A stretch of 64,000 bases of DNA from Candidatus Niyogibacteria bacterium (GTDB lineage: Bacteria > Patescibacteriota > Minisyncoccia > JACROR01): contig JACROR010000009.1 of NCBI GenBank assembly GCA_016214345.1, forward strand, positions 241 through 64,240, in the 5' to 3' direction. A program made the translations under genes and the position numbers. This document shows, piece after piece, positions 1 to 57,742 of the stretch; the stretch's first letter is position 1; the number at the start of each line of letters is the position of its first letter. The notes beneath the pieces are model-generated. The model was not told where the DNA came from, did not search any database, and saw only the letters and a list, made by a program, of their open reading frames with translations.

Positions 1-790
1 GTCTGCCCATCCAGTAAGCCAAAAGAAAATCAACGCCCGGATATTCCAAATTGCCGTCTCCTCCGCCGTCTAACGCGAACGGGGTACGTTGCCACAAAAA
101 ATCCGAAGGAGGCCTCTCATGGATTGGCAAAGGATAACGGGAAAACCTAGTGTTTTGTTCAATGGTTACCACGCCGCGCCAGCTCCGCGCCTTGGAAATA
201 TCCGTTCTCTGACTGTTTACCGCGCGCAAATCCCTGCGAGGAGCGGGAGGAAAACGGCGAAGCATCAATAAATTCTCATTCCTGTCTGCCAGGCTCATTT
301 CCTTACCGCTGATTGCCGCGTGGATATAATTAAAAAAAACATTGTCGTGGTTTTTAGTAAAGAACCAAAGTCTTTTTTCAAAAACATCCCTATAAAATTC
401 TTTTAACGCGGGATCTTTTTCCAACTCTACTAAATTAAAGAAACTTAGGTAATAAAGATTTACGGCATAATAATCGTAATAACGGTTTATCCAAGGGAAA
501 ATGTTTTCCAACTCGTCACTATGTTTTTTAACATAATATTCGTATTGCGATTTTCCACCCTGATCAGCCTGGCTGCGCGCTTTAGTGAAAGACAAAACAT
601 GAACGGCGTTGCCAATGCCAAAAAGGCTGTGGGGGTTAAGAATGCCGCCCGTGGTCCACCGACCATTGGCGTTAAGAATTCGCCAGTCATGCTTTTCCAA
701 AGAAAAAATAATGTCTCCCAGCAAAATTCCGATACGCTTCCGCTCTTCCGCGGGCACCAATTCGTAAGCCGTCCCCAAGCCAAGAATCAC
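1..790 (-). CDS. hypothetical protein, partial (C-terminus beyond window start); long open frame absent from ORF track
   Basis: Manual translation of minus frame: GTG at 790-788 then MILGLGTAYELVPAEERKRIGILLGDIIFSLEKHDWRILNANGRW...WINRYYDYYAVNLYYLSFFNLVELEK...; no stop down to position 1 (>260 codons). GTGA start/stop overlap with 787..1257. Confidence 0.45.
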   Translation of the reverse strand, partial: MILGLGTAYELVPAEERKRIGILLGDIIFSLEKHDWRILNANGRWTTGGILNPHSLFGIGNAVHVLSFTKARSQADQGGKSQYEYYVKKHSDELENIFPWINRYYDYYAVNLYYLSFFNLVELEKDPALKEFYRDVFEKRLWFFTKNHDNVFFNYIHAAISGKEMSLADRNENLLMLRRFPPAPRRDLRAVNSQRTDISKARSWRGVVTIEQNTRFSRYPLPIHERPPSDFLWQRTPFALDGGGDGNLEYPGVDFLLAYWMGR

Positions 791-1257: not shown

Positions 1258-1367
1258 AGAACGATGTATTTATACAACCACGCCTGGACCTATTTTAGCA
1301 AGAATTTCTAACCGCACTTTTGTGCGGTATCTCGCAGCGTAGCGAATAGATTTTGATGCCGCAACAA

Positions 1368-1382
1368 ACAAAGTGTATAATA
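1368..1382 (+). promoter_or_regulatory. extended -10 promoter element (TGtaTAATat) upstream of hemerythrin gene
   Basis: aaagTGtaTAATatt about 70 nt upstream of ATG at 1450. Confidence 0.3.
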
Positions 1383-1449
1383 TTAGTAGGTGGGCGATGA
1401 GCTATTATTTTTTTATCGACCCGCCTGAATTATTCATTTTAAAAAAACT

Positions 1450-1872
1450 ATGCCACTCTTAACTTGGGAACAAAAGAACAGTGTCGGCGTCCGCGAACTG
1501 GACGATCAGCACAAAAAACTTTTCAGTATCATTAACCGGCTTTACGATTCGATGCATACTGGCAAAGATATTGTTGAACTGAATTCTGTCCTCAAAGAAA
1601 TGATTGATTATGCCGACTATCATTTTTCCATGGAAGAAAAATATTTCGATCTTTTCAATTTTGAAGAAAAAGTTACGCACATCGCTAAGCATCGCGCCTT
1701 CGATAAAAAGGCCGCGGAATTTATGGGCAGGAATATGCTCGGCGATCCCACATTGTCATTTTTCGTACTTGATTTTCTTGAAGATTGGTGGCTCGGTCAT
1801 ATCAATAACACCGACAAGCGCTATACGAAATGCTTCAACGATCATGGCCTGAACGGAGCGCCGCAAAAATGA
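1450..1872 (+). CDS. hemerythrin-like (bacteriohemerythrin) domain protein
   Basis: Hemerythrin cation-binding pattern: DxQHKKLF, HFSMEEKYF, HxxxH, WLGHINNTD. Confidence 0.7.
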   Translation: MPLLTWEQKNSVGVRELDDQHKKLFSIINRLYDSMHTGKDIVELNSVLKEMIDYADYHFSMEEKYFDLFNFEEKVTHIAKHRAFDKKAAEFMGRNMLGDPTLSFFVLDFLEDWWLGHINNTDKRYTKCFNDHGLNGAPQK

Positions 1873-4036: not shown

Positions 4037-5317
4037 CTAAAAAATGCTCACTTCTCCGTACTCCCCGTCATAGCCGGGCTTTATATTCACCCGCCCTTCG
4101 CGCAAACGCCTGACCGCTTCAGCGATCCGGCTTTCGCCCGCGCTCTCCAACTCTTTGGGACTGACATTTAACAAAATATTCAATTCGCTGCCGAATTTCA
4201 CGATCAAATTATTATATTTTTCTTTAACTTTTTTAGAAGCCGTTCCCACGCCCAAAGCTTCACTCACCACCTCGTCTAACGGCACCAGATTATAATAAGG
4301 AACGCGCCCCACGCTTTCATGGTAAAAATTTTGCGCGATTTTCGGGGTTTTCCGGTCGGAGAGTTTCGCCACGCGATTCAAAACTCCCACCACCACGGGC
4401 TTGCCGCATTTGGGACACAGACTTTTGTGCTTCTCGGTTTCTTCCGGAGAAAAAACCACGCCACAGGCGCGATGCCCGTCGTAATGGTACTTCCCTTCTT
4501 CCGGAAAAAATTCAATTGTTGCAACAAATTTTGACTTTTGATTTTTGACTTTTGATTTTTGATTCGGCGCGCCGCTTTTTATCGCCCCCATAATTCCCTC
4601 GTATGATAATTCCGTGTCAAAAATATTCGCCTCGCGACCGATCTTTTGCAAACTGTGCGAATCGGAATTGGAAATGAGCGCCAGATTGTCCAGGGCGGAG
4701 AGCCGCCAATTCATCGAGGGATCGGACGAAAGTCCGGTTTCTAACGCGAAAATATGTTTGCTCATTTTACCGAAACATTCCTCCAACGAATCAAATCCTG
4801 ACATTGATCCGAAAAGCGAAAACCACGGAGTCCAAACATGGGCGGGAATTATCACCGCGCGAGAATTGATCTCCAAAACTATTTTCGCCAACTCTTCGGA
4901 ATCCAAACCCAAAATCGGCCTGCCGTCGGAACGCAAATTTCCGATAAGCGACAATTGCGCGATTATTTTCTCCGCGGTCGCCATATCCGGCGCTAACACG
5001 ATATTATGAACGCGCCGCGCCCTGCCTCCGCGGGAATAAATTCCGGAAATCTCAACCGTTAGCAAAAAACGGGTTTCCGCGAAAGTGCCTTTGAGTGTTT
5101 TTAACTTGTATTTATTTTTCAGCCGATAAAGTCCCGATTCCGCCGGCTCTAATTTGGTCTTGATCTCTTTGAACCACGCCGGATGCGTAAAGTCTCCGGT
5201 CCCCATAACCAAAATTCCTTTGTCATCAGCCCACCGATCCAATTCTTCCAAACACAAACTTTTAGAAGTCGCCCGCGACCACTTGGAATGAATATGCAGA
5301 TCGGCTATGAATTTCAT
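4037..5317 (-). CDS. PHP-domain protein, endonuclease Q-like (TIGR00375 family)
   Basis: N-terminal PHP motif ADLHIHSKWSRATS; C-terminal Cys cluster CPKCGKP; in-frame KSKVKNQKSK repeat insert. Confidence 0.5.
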   Translation of the reverse strand: MKFIADLHIHSKWSRATSKSLCLEELDRWADDKGILVMGTGDFTHPAWFKEIKTKLEPAESGLYRLKNKYKLKTLKGTFAETRFLLTVEISGIYSRGGRARRVHNIVLAPDMATAEKIIAQLSLIGNLRSDGRPILGLDSEELAKIVLEINSRAVIIPAHVWTPWFSLFGSMSGFDSLEECFGKMSKHIFALETGLSSDPSMNWRLSALDNLALISNSDSHSLQKIGREANIFDTELSYEGIMGAIKSGAPNQKSKVKNQKSKFVATIEFFPEEGKYHYDGHRACGVVFSPEETEKHKSLCPKCGKPVVVGVLNRVAKLSDRKTPKIAQNFYHESVGRVPYYNLVPLDEVVSEALGVGTASKKVKEKYNNLIVKFGSELNILLNVSPKELESAGESRIAEAVRRLREGRVNIKPGYDGEYGEVSIF

Positions 5318-5318
5318 A

Positions 5319-5390
5319 ATGCCCTTGGTAGGAATCGGACCTACATTTACCCCTTAGGACGGGGTTGTTCTATCCATTGAACTACAAGGG
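5319..5390 (-). tRNA. tRNA-Arg(CCT)
   Basis: Acceptor gcccttg/caagggc, anticodon stem acccc/ggggt, loop gtCCTaa; T-loop TCCGATT. Confidence 0.8.
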
Positions 5391-5466
5391 CGTGTTTGCA
5401 ACACCCAAAATATTTTATGCTATACTATACATAATACACTATTAGCAAATATCCCATAAACCAAAT

Positions 5467-6567
5467 ATGGATTACGAACAAAAAATAATAAGCGTTACCA
5501 AAAAAGCCCTGCCCGCGGTAGTAAGTATCGTCATTACCAAAGATTTGGAACAAATCACCTCGGAACTTTCTTTCAATCCGATGTTCAACAACCCTTACGA
5601 TCGGGCATTTTTGGAATCCAAGCTCCGCGAAGCTCCGAAAGACGAACACGGCAGAATCAAAATAGGCGGCGGATCGGGATTTATCATATCACCGGACGGC
5701 ATCGTGCTCACCAACAAACACGTGGTCATGGATACCAAATCGGAATACGGAGTGATCATGGGCGGCGGCAAAAAATATGACGCGGAGGTCCTGGCGCGCG
5801 ATCCTTTGAATGATGTCGCCATCATAAAAATAAAAGCGAAAGGTCTTCCGTATTTGGAGCTTGGTTCGGCGTTGAACCTTGAATTGGGACAAACAGTCAT
5901 CGCCATCGGCAACGCGCTAAACGAATTTCAAAATACCGTATCCACCGGAGTGGTATCCGGACTATCGCGCCTCATCACCGCCACTACTGATATCGCGGGA
6001 CATCAAGAACGCTTGAAAGGGCTCATCCAAACCGACGCCGCCATAAATCCGGGAAATTCGGGCGGCCCCATGATAAACCTGGACGGCAAAGTTATCGGCA
6101 TAAATTCCGCCATAGTCTTTGGAGCGCAAAATATCGGATTCGCTATTCCCATAGAACGCGCCAAAGCGGACCTGGAAGAGATTAAAAAATACGGACGCAT
6201 CAGACGGCCATTCATAGGATTGCGGCACATTATGTTAAACCAGATTCTCAAAGACCGCTTTCATCTGCCAGTAGAAAACGGAGCGCTCATCATGAGCGAA
6301 GGACTGCCCCAAGGAGAAACCGCGGTAATTCCCAACAGCCCAGCGGAAAAAGCGGGCATCAAAGAATTTGATATAATCCTGCGATGCAATAATAAAGACA
6401 TCAACGAAGAAAACACACTGGAAGACCAATTATCCAATTTAAAAATAGGAGACGCGGCTAAATTAACCGTTCTGCGCGAAGGTAAAAAACTGGAAAAGAA
6501 AATAGTGTTGGGCGAAATAAACAAACAAACTCTAAGCGCCGACGTCCCTCAAAAAGAAACCGACTAG
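5467..6567 (+). CDS. htrA: HtrA/DegP-family serine protease with PDZ domain
   Basis: Catalytic triad context [32 protein letters not shown]. Confidence 0.9.
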
Positions 6568-7566: not shown

Positions 7567-8313
7567 ATGAATTTTTCTTTAGCAAAAAATATCGTTTACG
7601 AGGATCGGGATGTCGTCGTGATAAACAAACCGGCAGGGATTGTGGTTCATCCGGACGCCACACACAAAAACGAAACGATGGTTGACGCTCTTTTAGAGCT
7701 GCATCCGGAAATTAAAACTGTGGGAGATGACCCGACGCGCCCGGGAATCGTGCACAGATTAGACAAAGACACATCCGGAGTTTTAATCGTCGCCAAAAAC
7801 CAAGCGGCGTTTGATCATCTAAAAAAAGAATTTCAAGAACGCCGCGCAATCAAAAACTACATAACATTGGCAGTAGGCTCCTTAAAACAAACGCAAGGAG
7901 AAATTAATTTACCCATCGGACGCGGATATAAAACACCCACGCAGCGCGTAGCCATACAGGCGCATCTGCCTGCCGGCAGACAGGTGCGCGGGCAAATAAG
8001 AGAAGCCCTTACTTATTATAAAGTGCTGGAAAGATTCCCGGAATTTACCCTAATGCAAATAACTCCCAAAACCGGGCGCACCCACCAAATAAGAACTCAT
8101 CTGAAAGCGATCGGCCATCCAGTGGCGTGCGACAAATTATACGGCGGAAAATTATTTATCTGCCCCATGGGCCTCACGCGGCAATTCCTCCATGCCGCTT
8201 CATTGGAACTTACACTCCCCTCGGGTTCACGCATTAAGCTGGAAGCGGATCTCCCCGACGACTTAATGAACACGCTTATGACTTTAAGGACACGCTTAGC
8301 AGGCAAAAGCTAA
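7567..8313 (+). CDS. RluA-family pseudouridine synthase
   Basis: VVINKPAGIVVHP, HRLDKDTSGVLIVAKN. Confidence 0.85.
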   Translation: MNFSLAKNIVYEDRDVVVINKPAGIVVHPDATHKNETMVDALLELHPEIKTVGDDPTRPGIVHRLDKDTSGVLIVAKNQAAFDHLKKEFQERRAIKNYITLAVGSLKQTQGEINLPIGRGYKTPTQRVAIQAHLPAGRQVRGQIREALTYYKVLERFPEFTLMQITPKTGRTHQIRTHLKAIGHPVACDKLYGGKLFICPMGLTRQFLHAASLELTLPSGSRIKLEADLPDDLMNTLMTLRTRLAGKS

Positions 8314-37426: not shown

Positions 37427-37546
37427 ATGTTCTATATTGTATCACGCGCCCATATTCCTCCAGCTATTGACATTTTTATTGATATATGATAATCTTATTT
37501 AAAGTAAAAACGGTTCTTTTCATAAACTCCAAGCAAGGAGGATTCC

Positions 37547-37750
37547 ATGCCCAAACGTAGACTGCCCCTCAAAATAGCGATGAAAGCGGTTGCCATGTCC
37601 CACCATTTCCCCTCTCTCGCGCCCGGTCACGGCGGCACGCACGGCGAATGCGTCAACCGCAAATGCGTAACCCACATCGGCAAAGGCGGAGAAGCACACA
37701 CCCAAAACCCGCTCACGTCAGCTGTCGCGTTTCTTACCCCGACCAATTAA
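37547..37750 (+). CDS. small His/Gly/Cys-rich protein in GC-rich island (speculative)
   Basis: SD aaggagg 5 nt before ATG; terminator 55 nt downstream. Confidence 0.3.
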   Translation: MPKRRLPLKIAMKAVAMSHHFPSLAPGHGGTHGECVNRKCVTHIGKGGEAHTQNPLTSAVAFLTPTN

Positions 37751-37805
37751 CCGCACCCTCCAAACCCTCCGGGGCGACCACCTTATCGCTCCGTCTCACC
37801 CACCA

Positions 37806-37839
37806 CCACCGCGGTATTTGCCGCGGTGGAATTTTTTTT
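37806..37839 (+). terminator. rho-independent terminator
   Basis: ccaccgcgg-tatttg-ccgcggtgg followed by aatttttttt. Confidence 0.8.
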
Positions 37840-38016
37840 AAAACCCCGCGAACCTACCTACCGGCAAGTAAACAGATTTGCATTATTTAAAAATTTCTGA
37901 TATAGTATATTTAATAAATTATCAATTAATTAAAAAAATTTTATCCAATTAAAACCCGTGAGTTTGTTTCATGAATAATAATATAGTAATGGAAAAAATA
38001 AACGGAAACACAATTT

Positions 38017-55822: not shown

Positions 55823-56620
55823 ATGCGAAGCCACGGAACCAAATTGGGACAAAATTTTTTAAAATCACGAAACACGGCGCGAAAAATCGCGGAGGCCGCT
55901 CAAATTTCCAGCCAAGATGAAATACTGGAAGTCGGTCCGGGAAAAGGAATTTTAACGGAAAAGCTTCTGGCGCGCGCCAAACGCGTGGTAGCGGTGGAAA
56001 AAAATCCCGCTCTTATAAAAATACTCCGCGTAAAATTTATCAACGAACTGTCTCTCGGAAAGCTTGCGCTCGTAGAAGGCGATATTTTAAAATTCAATCC
56101 CGCGACAGAAGGTCTTTTGCCTAGCCGATACCGGATCGTGGCGAATATCCCTTACTACCTAACCTCGCATTTTTTGCGAAAAACGCTGGAATCAAAATGC
56201 CCGCCTCAAGACATGACCCTAACCATCCAAAAAGAAGTGGCGGAAAGAATTTGCGCCCGACCGCCGCGCATGAATTTGCTCGCCCTATCGGTACAAATTT
56301 TCAGCCAGCCGAAGATCGCTTTCAAAATATCCAAAAAAGAATTTGCGCCGGCGCCCAAAGTGGACTCGGCCGTTATCAACATAAACGACATTTCGCGCGC
56401 CTTTTTCTCCGCGAATAAAATAAACGAACAAAAATTTTTTAAAATCATAAAATCGGGGTTCGCGCAAAAACGAAAAGTTTTACTAAATAATCTTTACCAC
56501 CAACAAAATATTAAAAAATCTGAAATAGAATCCGTTTTTGAAAAGTGCGAAGTCCCCATCAAGGCGCGCGCGGAAAATCTGGAAATAAAACACTGGATTT
56601 GCTTATACAAAAACCTATAA
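55823..56620 (+). CDS. rsmA: 16S rRNA (adenine1518/1519-N6)-dimethyltransferase
   Basis: GQNFL, EVGPGKGILT, NIPYY. Confidence 0.9.
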   Translation: MRSHGTKLGQNFLKSRNTARKIAEAAQISSQDEILEVGPGKGILTEKLLARAKRVVAVEKNPALIKILRVKFINELSLGKLALVEGDILKFNPATEGLLPSRYRIVANIPYYLTSHFLRKTLESKCPPQDMTLTIQKEVAERICARPPRMNLLALSVQIFSQPKIAFKISKKEFAPAPKVDSAVININDISRAFFSANKINEQKFFKIIKSGFAQKRKVLLNNLYHQQNIKKSEIESVFEKCEVPIKARAENLEIKHWICLYKNL

Positions 56621-56625
56621 ATACT

Positions 56626-56650
56626 CACCTGGCTATCCGATAGCCAGGTG
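56626..56650. promoter_or_regulatory. 25-bp perfect palindrome cacctggctatc-c-gatagccaggtg
   Basis: Immediately after rsmA stop, before terminator. Confidence 0.4.
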
Positions 56651-56683
56651 GACGGATCTGTTGACTGATTGCCTACAAAATTA

Positions 56684-56712
56684 AAAGACCGTCCATTACA
56701 GACGGTCTTTTT
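56684..56712. terminator. rho-independent terminator (bidirectional)
   Basis: aaagaccgtc-cattaca-gacggtcttttt. Confidence 0.8.
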
Positions 56713-56717
56713 GTATA

Positions 56718-56807
56718 TTAGCCGGAGTGTGGCGGCCCTGCGGGAATAGAAAAAATTCCCGTAATCAACACCGCCACCAAAATTAACGAAACGAGACCCA
56801 AGGTCAT
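56718..56807 (-). CDS. 29-aa hydrophobic micro-protein (MTLGLVSLILVAVLITGIFSIPAGPPHSG)
   Basis: Strong SD aagggggtg 6 nt upstream of ATG; below ORF-track size cutoff. Confidence 0.4.
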   Translation of the reverse strand: MTLGLVSLILVAVLITGIFSIPAGPPHSG

Positions 56808-56831
56808 CACCCCCTTAATTGGTTTAAATGG

Positions 56832-56945
56832 TTATTTTTCCTTCCGAGAACCACCGAAGGCGAACGTCAGCGCGCCAACAGCCGTTAACAATACCGCTCC
56901 CACCATCAACAAACCACCAAAAGTCAAAACGACAAATTCTAACAA
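56832..56945 (-). CDS. 37-aa hydrophobic micro-protein (TTG start; LEFVVLTFGGLLMVGAVLLTAVGALTFAFGGSRKEK)
   Basis: Strong SD gaaggaggtg 7 nt upstream of TTG. Confidence 0.35.
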   Translation of the reverse strand: MLEFVVLTFGGLLMVGAVLLTAVGALTFAFGGSRKEK

Positions 56946-56976
56946 TAAATCACCTCCTTCTAAGGCAAAAGATTGT

Positions 56977-57678
56977 TTATAAACGAACCCACCAGCTTAC
57001 CAGCATATTATTATTGACCTGGTAATATTTGCCGGATTCATTACGCACATTAACATACTGCTTATACGGAACACGCGTGACGTGGCGGAAAAAACCGTAG
57101 CCGGCATAAGAATATATAACTAATTTATATTCTCCTTCCGGCAATTTAATGAACAAGTCGTTCACCCGATAATAATGGTTGCCGACAAGCCGTCCACCAC
57201 CGGTATCAAAAACGATCTCTAACACCCCGCCTGAATCGCGACGCGTCCGCAGCGTAACGCCCTGTAAAGAGGGCGTCCCAAAGTGAATGGCTTCCAAGGC
57301 CTCTACTCTATAAAACGGAGAAGCAAGCTTGGTCTTTTTTCCCCCTACTTCAATGTAACCTTGGGTTTTTACCTCGGCTATACCGAGATAGGGAAGCCAC
57401 TTGCCCTGCCGGCGGACATAAATAAACACATCCTTCTCTTCGCCGTCGCTTTCATTGCTGATTACGCCCAATAGTTCTTTGGAATTGCGCTCAAGCTCAA
57501 TTCCAAGAGAAGTAAATCCTCCGGGCGTAGCGTGAAGCTCGTTTCTGGAAAAAGCATCAGCCATTACTGCGGGCTCGCCCGACGATGAGACATCAAAACG
57601 CGCCATAACGCTTTTGCCCAAAGCGCAACCGGCAAGCAAAAACCAAACCATCGCAAGATACCACATCTTTTTCATCAC
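56977..57678 (-). CDS. lipoprotein, unknown function
   Basis: Lipobox LLAGC. Confidence 0.6.
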   Translation of the reverse strand: MMKKMWYLAMVWFLLAGCALGKSVMARFDVSSSGEPAVMADAFSRNELHATPGGFTSLGIELERNSKELLGVISNESDGEEKDVFIYVRRQGKWLPYLGIAEVKTQGYIEVGGKKTKLASPFYRVEALEAIHFGTPSLQGVTLRTRRDSGGVLEIVFDTGGGRLVGNHYYRVNDLFIKLPEGEYKLVIYSYAGYGFFRHVTRVPYKQYVNVRNESGKYYQVNNNMLVSWWVRL

Positions 57679-57742
57679 TTACTCCTGAAAGATAGTTTTT
57701 TGTTTTTAAAGTTCTTTTAGTTTCTATAATTATACACAATTT

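Follow-up and report, generated by a model that had tools for sequence, protein, structure and literature searches.

In a 64,000-nt stretch of DNA from a metagenome-assembled genome (MAG) of Candidatus Niyogibacteria, which belongs to the Patescibacteria or Candidate Phyla Radiation (CPR), two short open reading frames (ORFs) follow a lipoprotein gene on the minus strand. With moderate confidence we regard the second of them, ORF2 (56810..56718), as a real and unannotated gene that would encode a lineage-restricted, single-pass membrane protein of 27-30 residues and form the last cistron of the lipoprotein unit. The complete stretch will be called the window; its RsmA is 100% identical to a protein of a Candidatus Niyogibacteria MAG, encoded on a 133-kb contig, and an identical Logan contig (L004) exists. 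The Shine-Dalgarno (SD) sequence, the open frame, the stop and the hydrophobicity of ORF2 are conserved in the only two other independent genomes in which the locus was found, L001 and L002, and the product shows a moderate constraint at the protein level. Both frames and their SD strings had been pointed out in an earlier note on this DNA, and they are indeed read in the sequence between the rsmA terminator and the lipoprotein gene.

From the arrangement of the locus we infer that transcription would begin at a promoter-like site at 57756..57729, run through the lipoprotein gene, ORF1 where present, and ORF2, and end at an intrinsic terminator at 56711..56683. ORF2 would be translated from this polycistronic mRNA by means of its own extended SD; its uncharged hydrophobic core would enter the cytoplasmic membrane, and the short proline-rich tail that ends in glycine would stay at the membrane surface. 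Such a peptide would most likely assist or partner the lipoprotein expressed with it, or else the machinery of lipoprotein maturation, lnt being located immediately upstream. As it stands, ORF2 is a plausible small gene confined to three metagenome-derived genomes. If it is real, an unannotated small membrane protein is added to a CPR bacterium, beside a clade-specific lipoprotein and Lnt, in a group about whose envelope biology almost nothing is known; ORF2 would also illustrate that gene callers miss genes of fewer than 40 codons in such genomes.

ORF2 ends in TAA and has 27-30 codons according to the start chosen, the candidates being GTG 56810, ATG 56807 and TTG 56801. Its SD, read from the sequence, is AAGGGGGTG (56816..56808, minus strand). 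The arrangement had been given previously as aagggggtg-N6-ATG, which has to be corrected: the ATG at 56807 abuts the string, and a spacer of six nucleotides leads to TTG 56801. This TTG, 8 nt after GGGGG, is the best-spaced start and opens 27 codons; the ATG starts of the L001 and L002 orthologs are found at a matching 8-nt spacing. The peptide has no charged residues (neither Lys nor Arg), and consists of a hydrophobic core, LGLVSLILVAVLITGIFSI, and the tail PAGPPHSG. Its grand average of hydropathy (GRAVY) is 1.53, within the top 0.3% of the 351 window ORFs of 25-45 codons, and that of ORF1 is 1.22, roughly within the top 1-2%. The best 19-residue Kyte-Doolittle windows, 2.6-2.7 for ORF2 and 2.4 for ORF1, agree in both cases with a single transmembrane segment in an ORF of fewer than 50 codons. 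When codon usage was scored as log-odds trained on the long genes of the window, ORF2 reached 0.125 (top 3.3% of out-of-frame windows) and ORF1 0.22 (top 1.5%). In-frame 30-codon windows of real genes have a mean of 0.32 with a standard deviation of 0.18, and the transmembrane region of lnt ranges from -0.06 to 0.37; the codon usage of both frames is gene-like and falls within the range of real genes.

Neither peptide, in any of ten start variants, was present in an exact look-up against approximately 15 billion proteins, and comparisons with Pfam, NCBIfam, PHROGs, PADLOC and PDB gave nothing above noise. Gene calls on the identical contig or on related contigs annotate nothing in the gap between the lipoprotein gene and rsmA; likewise, no paralogs of either ORF were found in the window or in the retrieved loci, and nothing relevant to them was found in the published literature.

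Conservation of ORF2 in related genomes

Relatives of the locus were sought with the lipoprotein and with RsmA. A protein search with the lipoprotein returned five proteins, a scan of genome contigs one locus, an alignment-based scan of metagenomes one truncated locus, and a scan of viral sequences none; RsmA gave many matches, but no more than two of them were above 60% identity. L001 is a Patescibacteria MAG (JBBTRG010000015) with an RsmA 82% identical to that of the window, and L002 (identical to L015, with L016 as a strain variant) has an RsmA 78% identical; the lipoproteins of both are 69-70% identical to the one in the window. The lipoprotein and RsmA place the window outside the pair formed by L001 and L002, whereas Lnt does not. 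The synteny with lnt proposed as a check in the earlier note is complete in both relatives, where the order is a TSP3-like protein, lnt, the lipoprotein gene, the small ORFs, the terminator, rsmA and uvrD; however, it does not extend to a more distant group of Niyogibacteria loci (L007-L014), in which lnt is not at this locus.

The orthologs of ORF2 occupy the same location as in the window. In L001 the product is MMIMMTAVLVSFLILLEGAILSLPPGPAYAG (4313..4408) and in L002 it is ...MLMIMTAVLVSFLFLLSGGIFFLPPAPDPLG. The SD of both, GGAGGTGATG (GGAGGTG), is identical, and the window version, GGGGGTGATG, differs by one A-to-G change, which would still allow it to pair with the anti-SD through a G-U wobble. 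SD and stop lie 93, 96 or 99 nt apart in the three genomes, so that the differences are multiples of three. All three peptides have a hydrophobic core, a Pro-rich tail (PAGPPHSG, PPGPAYAG and PPAPDPLG) and a terminal Gly before the stop. The SD is better conserved than ORF2 itself, the nucleotide identity of which is 0.51-0.70.

Several tests indicate that the similarity of the peptides exceeds what neutral change would leave. The cleanest comparison is that between L001 and L002, since it needs no internal gaps: third codon positions account for 14 of the 26 differences (P = 0.025), and the peptides share 18 of 29 residues, where a random placement of the same substitutions would leave 13.9 (permutation P = 0.022). 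For the window against L001 and L002, a protein-guided alignment gave P = 0.013 and 0.016. BLOSUM62 similarity, with every simulated peptide globally re-aligned, gave P = 0.011-0.032 for all pairs, and for keeping both an open frame and a hydrophobic 17-mer P was about 0.01-0.04 in five of six directions. Taken over the three genomes, the permutation P values range from 0.01 to 0.06 and depend on the alignment for the pairs that include the window. The ratio of nonsynonymous to synonymous substitution rates (dN/dS, NG86) is 0.38-0.48 for ORF2; the neighbouring lipoprotein gene, rsmA and lnt show 0.15-0.28, with dS values of 0.54-1.0. These data suggest a weak to moderate purifying selection on the ORF2 peptide, for which mainly the hydrophobicity, the length and the Pro-rich, Gly-terminated end would matter. 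Of the earlier proposal that the two frames encode small membrane peptides, the part on ORF2 is supported, given that an SD-led, open and hydrophobic frame with similarity above the neutral level is kept in both relatives; the part on ORF1 is weak, as this frame has 37 codons in the window and 15 in L002 and is deleted in L001.

A number of observations weigh against ORF2 being a functional gene. Without gaps, the window peptide shows no excess of amino-acid identity with those of L001 and L002 (P = 0.56 and 0.38). The constraint must be considered weak because the nucleotide identity of ORF2 (51-54% and 70%) is no higher than the identity of the neighbouring genes at third positions (56-74%); similarly, its dN amounts to 0.3-0.8 of the dS of these genes. 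An open frame of this size is easily kept under neutrality, a stop being gained in only 10-40% of the simulations, and since there are just three independent genomes, every test is weak, and the pairs among them are interdependent. The peptide is without a charged flank that would fix its topology. No homolog was found outside the clade and no annotation exists, ORF2 itself being too short for the protein searches; the more distant loci either have neither ORF or end at rsmA, and the accompanying ORF1 is variable or absent. Finally, adjacency alone ties the peptide to the lipoprotein or to Lnt, and a partner in the lipoprotein or in the Lnt-dependent lipoprotein pathway is our guess from that adjacency.

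After the ORF2 stop, L001 (4409..4439) and L002 (3407..3445) carry a segment of approximately 27 nt, AAGGCTAAGGCATAGGCAGTAG..., in which the pattern xAxGGC recurs every 6 nt. The identity of this segment between the two genomes is about 78%, higher than that of ORF2, and the window lacks it; the segment bears a vague resemblance to a (TAYGGN)n Tyr-Gly repeat in a gene of L003, which is described next.

Outside these three genomes the region looks different. In L007-L014, Niyogibacteria with RsmA proteins 56-58% identical to that of the window, a recognisable lipoprotein homolog is convergent with rsmA and has the motifs GGPA, TPGGF, SKDVxI, LEAIHF, VTLRxR and LFIKLP in common with it; these genomes carry the homolog, but not lnt, at the rsmA locus. 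Their terminator follows the lipoprotein stop at about 10-40 nt, and the same order of stop and terminator was found in L006, where the lipoprotein is 44% identical. In L003, with a lipoprotein 40% identical, the next gene encodes a 115-aa lipoprotein (1275..1622) preceded by a 12-nt SD, TAAGGAGGTGAT; this protein has a Tyr-Gly repeat and a Lys-rich tail and is an orphan, with no other member among 5.8 billion protein clusters. Because the lipoprotein stops of the outgroups run into the terminator, or in L003 into the orphan lipoprotein gene, the 130-260 nt that hold ORF2, with or without ORF1, have been added in this clade alone, between the stop codon of the lipoprotein gene and the terminator. 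A search of this insert by blastn against plasmids and phages gave no match, and a mobile or foreign origin was rejected as an explanation.

The lipoprotein unit, ORF1 and the use of Shine-Dalgarno sequences

The minus strand carries, in this order, lnt, the lipoprotein gene, ORF1 and ORF2, followed by a bidirectional terminator and the 3' end of the convergent rsmA, with uvrD/pcrA behind rsmA. The two ORFs are thus co-directional with the lipoprotein gene and lnt, as described previously. The lnt gene (59302..57743, minus strand) matches the Pfam domains LNT_N and CN_hydrolase as well as TIGR00546 at 156 bits, and represents a full-length apolipoprotein N-acyltransferase in a Patescibacteria genome that adjoins a clade-specific lipoprotein. 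A spacer of 64 nt separates it from the lipoprotein gene (57678..56977, minus strand), whose 233-aa product has the features of a bacterial lipoprotein, a signal peptide and the lipobox LLAGC. No Pfam family matched this protein, and its family is confined to Niyogibacteria-like genomes; its AlphaFold2 model was poor (pLDDT 56.7) and a Foldseek search with it against PDB gave no match at E <= 0.001. The promoter-like site at 57756..57729 (minus strand), TTGACT-16-TATAAT, agrees with the consensus at 11 of 12 positions and lies at the 3' end of lnt, ahead of the lipoprotein gene. The same 11/12 site, with a spacing of 16 or 17, is present in the identical position in L001 and L002.

ORF1 (56945..56832, minus strand) begins with TTG 31 nt past the lipoprotein gene and ends with TAA after 37 codons, and ORF2 follows 21-30 nt further on. 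Six nucleotides past the ORF2 stop is the terminator AAAAGACCGTC...GACGGTCTTTT (56711..56683), a 13-bp hairpin with U-tracts on either strand, which is common to the lipoprotein unit and to rsmA (55823..56620, plus strand); L001 and L002 have a hairpin of different stem sequence at the equivalent position. No terminator-like site was detected between the lipoprotein stop and 56711, and a promoter-like site was seen solely ahead of the lipoprotein gene. The site at 57756..57729 may be taken as the start of the transcription unit that would hold ORF1 and ORF2, each of which would then have its own ribosome-binding site and be co-transcribed with the upstream gene, as expected for operon-encoded small membrane proteins.

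A perfect 11-bp hairpin, CACCTGGCTATCGGATAGCCAGGTG (56626..56650), is located right after the rsmA stop, ahead of the shared terminator, and the two jointly give a sub-threshold match to Rfam RNAI (28.5 bits versus a gathering score of 47) that is probably meaningless. An RNA element in the region was also considered and rejected: no Rfam family reached its gathering score, sub-threshold matches fell only on rsmA-side hairpins, the RNAalifold covariation term was positive (unfavourable), and no conserved fold supported by covariation was found apart from the terminator. The folding energy of the region in the window is low (z = -4.1), which may be due in part to the terminator and to a window-specific hairpin inside ORF2.

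The product of ORF1, MLEFVVLTFGGLLMVGAVLLTAVGALTFAFGGSRKEK, contains GG motifs and has a transmembrane-like segment rich in Gly, Ala and Leu and a basic tail, SRKEK. Its SD, GAAGGAGGTG (56960..56951, minus strand; read from the sequence), stands 5 nt from the TTG, and the GGAGG core 7 nt from it, which bears out the TTG start, the 37 codons and the spacing of seven reported previously. Together with the next two bases this string forms AAGGAGGTGAT, an 11-nt complement to the canonical 3' tail of 16S rRNA, from which the tail of the host may differ. Because of this complementarity, and because its SD belongs to the strongest class in the window, ORF1 is probably translated in this genome. As had been noted, it overlaps a plus-strand ORF, which has 65 aa (56828..57025) and is missing from L001.

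The relatives give a different picture of ORF1 from that of ORF2. In L001 the ORF1 segment and its SD are missing through a 127-nt indel, and 37 nt separate the lipoprotein stop from ORF2. The SD and start have homologs in L002 and L016, AAGGAGGatttATG, but the frame that these open has just 15 codons, MDIVAVVLILWFLAA followed by a stop; the DNA of these two genomes can be aligned to that of the window only over the two ends of ORF1, and the deletions between do not preserve the frame. Across the intergenic region a single-nucleotide polymorphism (SNP) is the only difference between L002 and L016; it is non-synonymous and lies in this 15-codon homolog, and the strain polymorphism is uninformative for ORF2. 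No homologs of ORF1 were found among 1.84 billion representative proteins, and neither conservation nor purifying selection was detected for it. On the grouping given by the lipoprotein and RsmA, an SD-led hydrophobic start like that of ORF1 would be ancestral to the three genomes, lost in L001 and resized in the others. ORF1 appears to be evolutionarily unstable and dispensable, either young or decaying.

With regard to the two strains, L015 and L016 differ by 130 SNPs that are strongly clustered (coordinates 1..750 and 5026..5974): 50 are in the gene for a LysM/M23 peptidase and 66 in a part of lnt that is 950 nt long, with 3 in the lipoprotein gene, 1 in rsmA and none in uvrD. This clustering looks like recombination mosaicism.

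The SDs of ORF1 and ORF2 stand out in a genome where such sequences are rare. Most of the 46 long ORFs of the window have no SD, and many show a TATAAT-like hexamer that ends approximately 6-10 nt ahead of the ATG (for example those at 7567+, 20760-21848-, 35804-37426- and 59403+), which suggests that leaderless or SD-independent initiation is widespread among the genes of this Niyogibacteria genome. The string AAGGAGG occurs five times (106+, 37535+, 40973-, 46247- and 56959-), always in gaps between long ORFs. In all five cases a start codon at 4-10 nt from the GGAGG core opens an ORF of 37-68 codons (119..271+, 37547..37750+, 40754..40960-, 46050..46232- and 56832..56945-, the last being ORF1), none of which matches Pfam. 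An ORF of at least 37 codons placed in this manner has a background frequency of 0.114 at arbitrary positions, so that five of five has a P of about 2e-5. Strong SDs therefore seem to mark small, mostly uncharacterised ORFs, and their rarity, together with the position of all five sites before small ORFs, could yield a practical rule for finding small proteins in genomes of this kind.

One of these ORFs, of 67 codons and with an odd product containing His, Gly and Cys, lies in a 590-nt gap without long ORFs (37427..38016), a gap that gave no Rfam match at E <= 0.1. At another site two small single-transmembrane proteins with Cys/His-rich tails, of 73 aa (46472..46251) and 60 aa (46232..46050), are encoded in tandem on the minus strand. 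Like ORF1 and ORF2, they form a pair of adjoining small hydrophobic ORFs, both preceded by a GGAGG-type SD, and are followed by an intrinsic terminator; unlike them, they are longer, have Cys-rich cytoplasmic tails and show no sequence similarity to them. Because of this pair, the layout of ORF1 and ORF2 is not unique in the genome.

A broader picture can be drawn from these data, which we present as a speculation that is unlikely to hold: extended SDs would mark a hidden set of small-protein genes in a largely SD-less, apparently leaderless-rich Niyogibacteria genome, and the stretch from the lipoprotein stop to the terminator would be a site of birth and loss of genes for small membrane proteins. 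ORF2 would have been fixed in the clade, perhaps after recruitment from a sequence similar to a lipoprotein signal peptide, ORF1 would fluctuate between 37, 15 and no codons, and neither would be found in the outgroups.

Alternative explanations

The alternative that deserves most attention, possible if somewhat unlikely in our view, is that the SD and ORF2 are the leftover N-terminus of a second lipoprotein gene, in other words a signal peptide with a lipobox that has no Cys, and that ORF1 is junk of the same lineage-specific insertion, both peptides being functionless. In the signal peptide of a bacterial lipoprotein, a basic n-region is followed by a hydrophobic h-region and by a lipobox, L-[ASTVI]-[GAS]-C, whose Cys is invariant. 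ORF2 shows a lipobox-like L-[IL]-[TES]-G followed by a residue other than Cys and then by a Pro-rich region, as in the L003 protein '...ILAGCASAFVPAEDYHPPEEP', which is encoded directly downstream of the lipoprotein gene with the same extended SD; in addition, MAFFT places the Pro-rich end and the stop (TGA) of ORF2 opposite 'HPPEEPYYGW' (TGG) of L003. A decaying sequence would also account for a divergence nearly as fast as that of synonymous sites and for the large indels that gain, lose and resize ORF1. Nevertheless, the homology to the L003 gene, suggestive by eye and by MAFFT, is insignificant: hhalign gave a probability of 0.5% and the local DNA alignment was no better than those of shuffled sequences, and the L003 protein is itself an orphan. 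ORF2 does not qualify as a lipoprotein, since the three genomes have L-I-T-G-I, L-L-E-G-A and L-L-S-G-G, without Cys, and lack the basic n-region of a signal peptide. Furthermore, a dead sequence would be unlikely to keep a 10-nt SD, the start, the position of the stop, frame-preserving lengths and hydrophobicity at a dS of approximately 0.7-1.0.

A second alternative is that the SDs, and not the peptides, are what matters: ribosomes would be brought to the 3' part of the mRNA, stabilising the transcript or shielding it up to the terminator, and the ORFs would be incidental. The better conservation of the SD than of the peptide fits this idea, as do the free variation in the length of ORF1 while L002 keeps its SD and start, the conspicuousness of these SDs in a genome where they are rare, and the ORF2 stop in the window, just 6 nt from the terminator stem. 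However, this last distance is not conserved (about 31 and 39 nt in the relatives), L001 is wholly without the ORF1 SD, and the hydrophobicity and similarity of the ORF2 peptide are kept above the neutral expectation. The known STAB-SD elements act at the 5' end of transcripts, and we know of no precedent for an SD-mediated stabilisation from a 3' position. We consider this explanation quite improbable.

That the ORFs belong to a secreted or toxic peptide system, be it a signalling peptide similar to the short hydrophobic peptides (SHPs) with a mature C-terminal tail, a type I toxin or a two-peptide bacteriocin, appears very improbable. The size and hydrophobicity of ORF2, its variable C-terminal tail ending in Gly, the tandem of two small hydrophobic ORFs and the GG motifs of ORF1 would be in line with such systems; on the other hand, the nearby genes are lnt, the lipoprotein gene, rsmA and uvrD, and PADLOC, PHROGs, Pfam and NCBIfam gave no matches. 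An Rgg/SHP system would call for an Rgg-family regulator, none of which is adjacent, and ORF2 has no basic N-terminus and contains neither Lys nor Arg. For a type I toxin-antitoxin pair, a consensus scan revealed no conserved promoter-like site ahead of or antisense to the ORFs in the three genomes. As to a class IIb bacteriocin, no transporter (ABC transporter/C39 peptidase) or immunity gene is present in the neighbourhood and ORF1 is not conserved, which argues that a two-peptide system has not been maintained.

The suggestion of the earlier note that the ORFs lie upstream of the lipoprotein gene and lnt and act as leader peptides, by attenuation or translational coupling, is refuted by the gene order in spite of the strong SDs and short ORFs beside a U-tract hairpin. 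On their own strand the ORFs are the 3'-terminal cistrons of that unit, downstream of both genes and in the same order in the relatives; the hairpin behind ORF2 serves as the terminator for both directions, and past it there is only the tail of the convergent rsmA and nothing to regulate.

Comparison with known small hydrophobic proteins

If ORF2 is a small membrane protein, as we favour, it can be compared with several known systems. Enterococcal pheromones are cut from lipoprotein signal peptides, and the SHPs are part of Rgg quorum-sensing systems. ORF2 resembles both in its size of approximately 25-35 hydrophobic codons, in a C-terminal tail that ends in Gly and varies between species, and in its likeness to a lipoprotein signal peptide. 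It differs in lacking a basic N-terminus and an Rgg-type regulator next to it, and in its location behind a lipoprotein gene, with which it is predicted to be co-transcribed, rather than as a standalone gene. The type I toxins Fst, TisB, Ibs and Ldr are likewise small hydrophobic peptides of a single helix that usually escape annotation; unlike them, ORF2 has neither its own promoter nor that of an antisense RNA, and it is a single-copy frame within an operon and has a strong, accessible SD.

The closest parallels are CydX (37 aa), the last gene of cydABX, and MgtR (30 aa), the last gene of mgtCBR, both operon-terminal single-pass membrane proteins. This class is a functional one and not a homology family, and ORF2 is not a homolog of any known family: it has no sequence similarity to these proteins, its partner would be the lipoprotein or Lnt instead of an oxidase or MgtC, and it occurs in only three known genomes and has no charged flanks. 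What it has in common with CydX and MgtR is a length within 27-37 aa, a single hydrophobic helix, an SD of its own, a position at the 3' end of an operon for envelope proteins, and a size that gene callers routinely miss.

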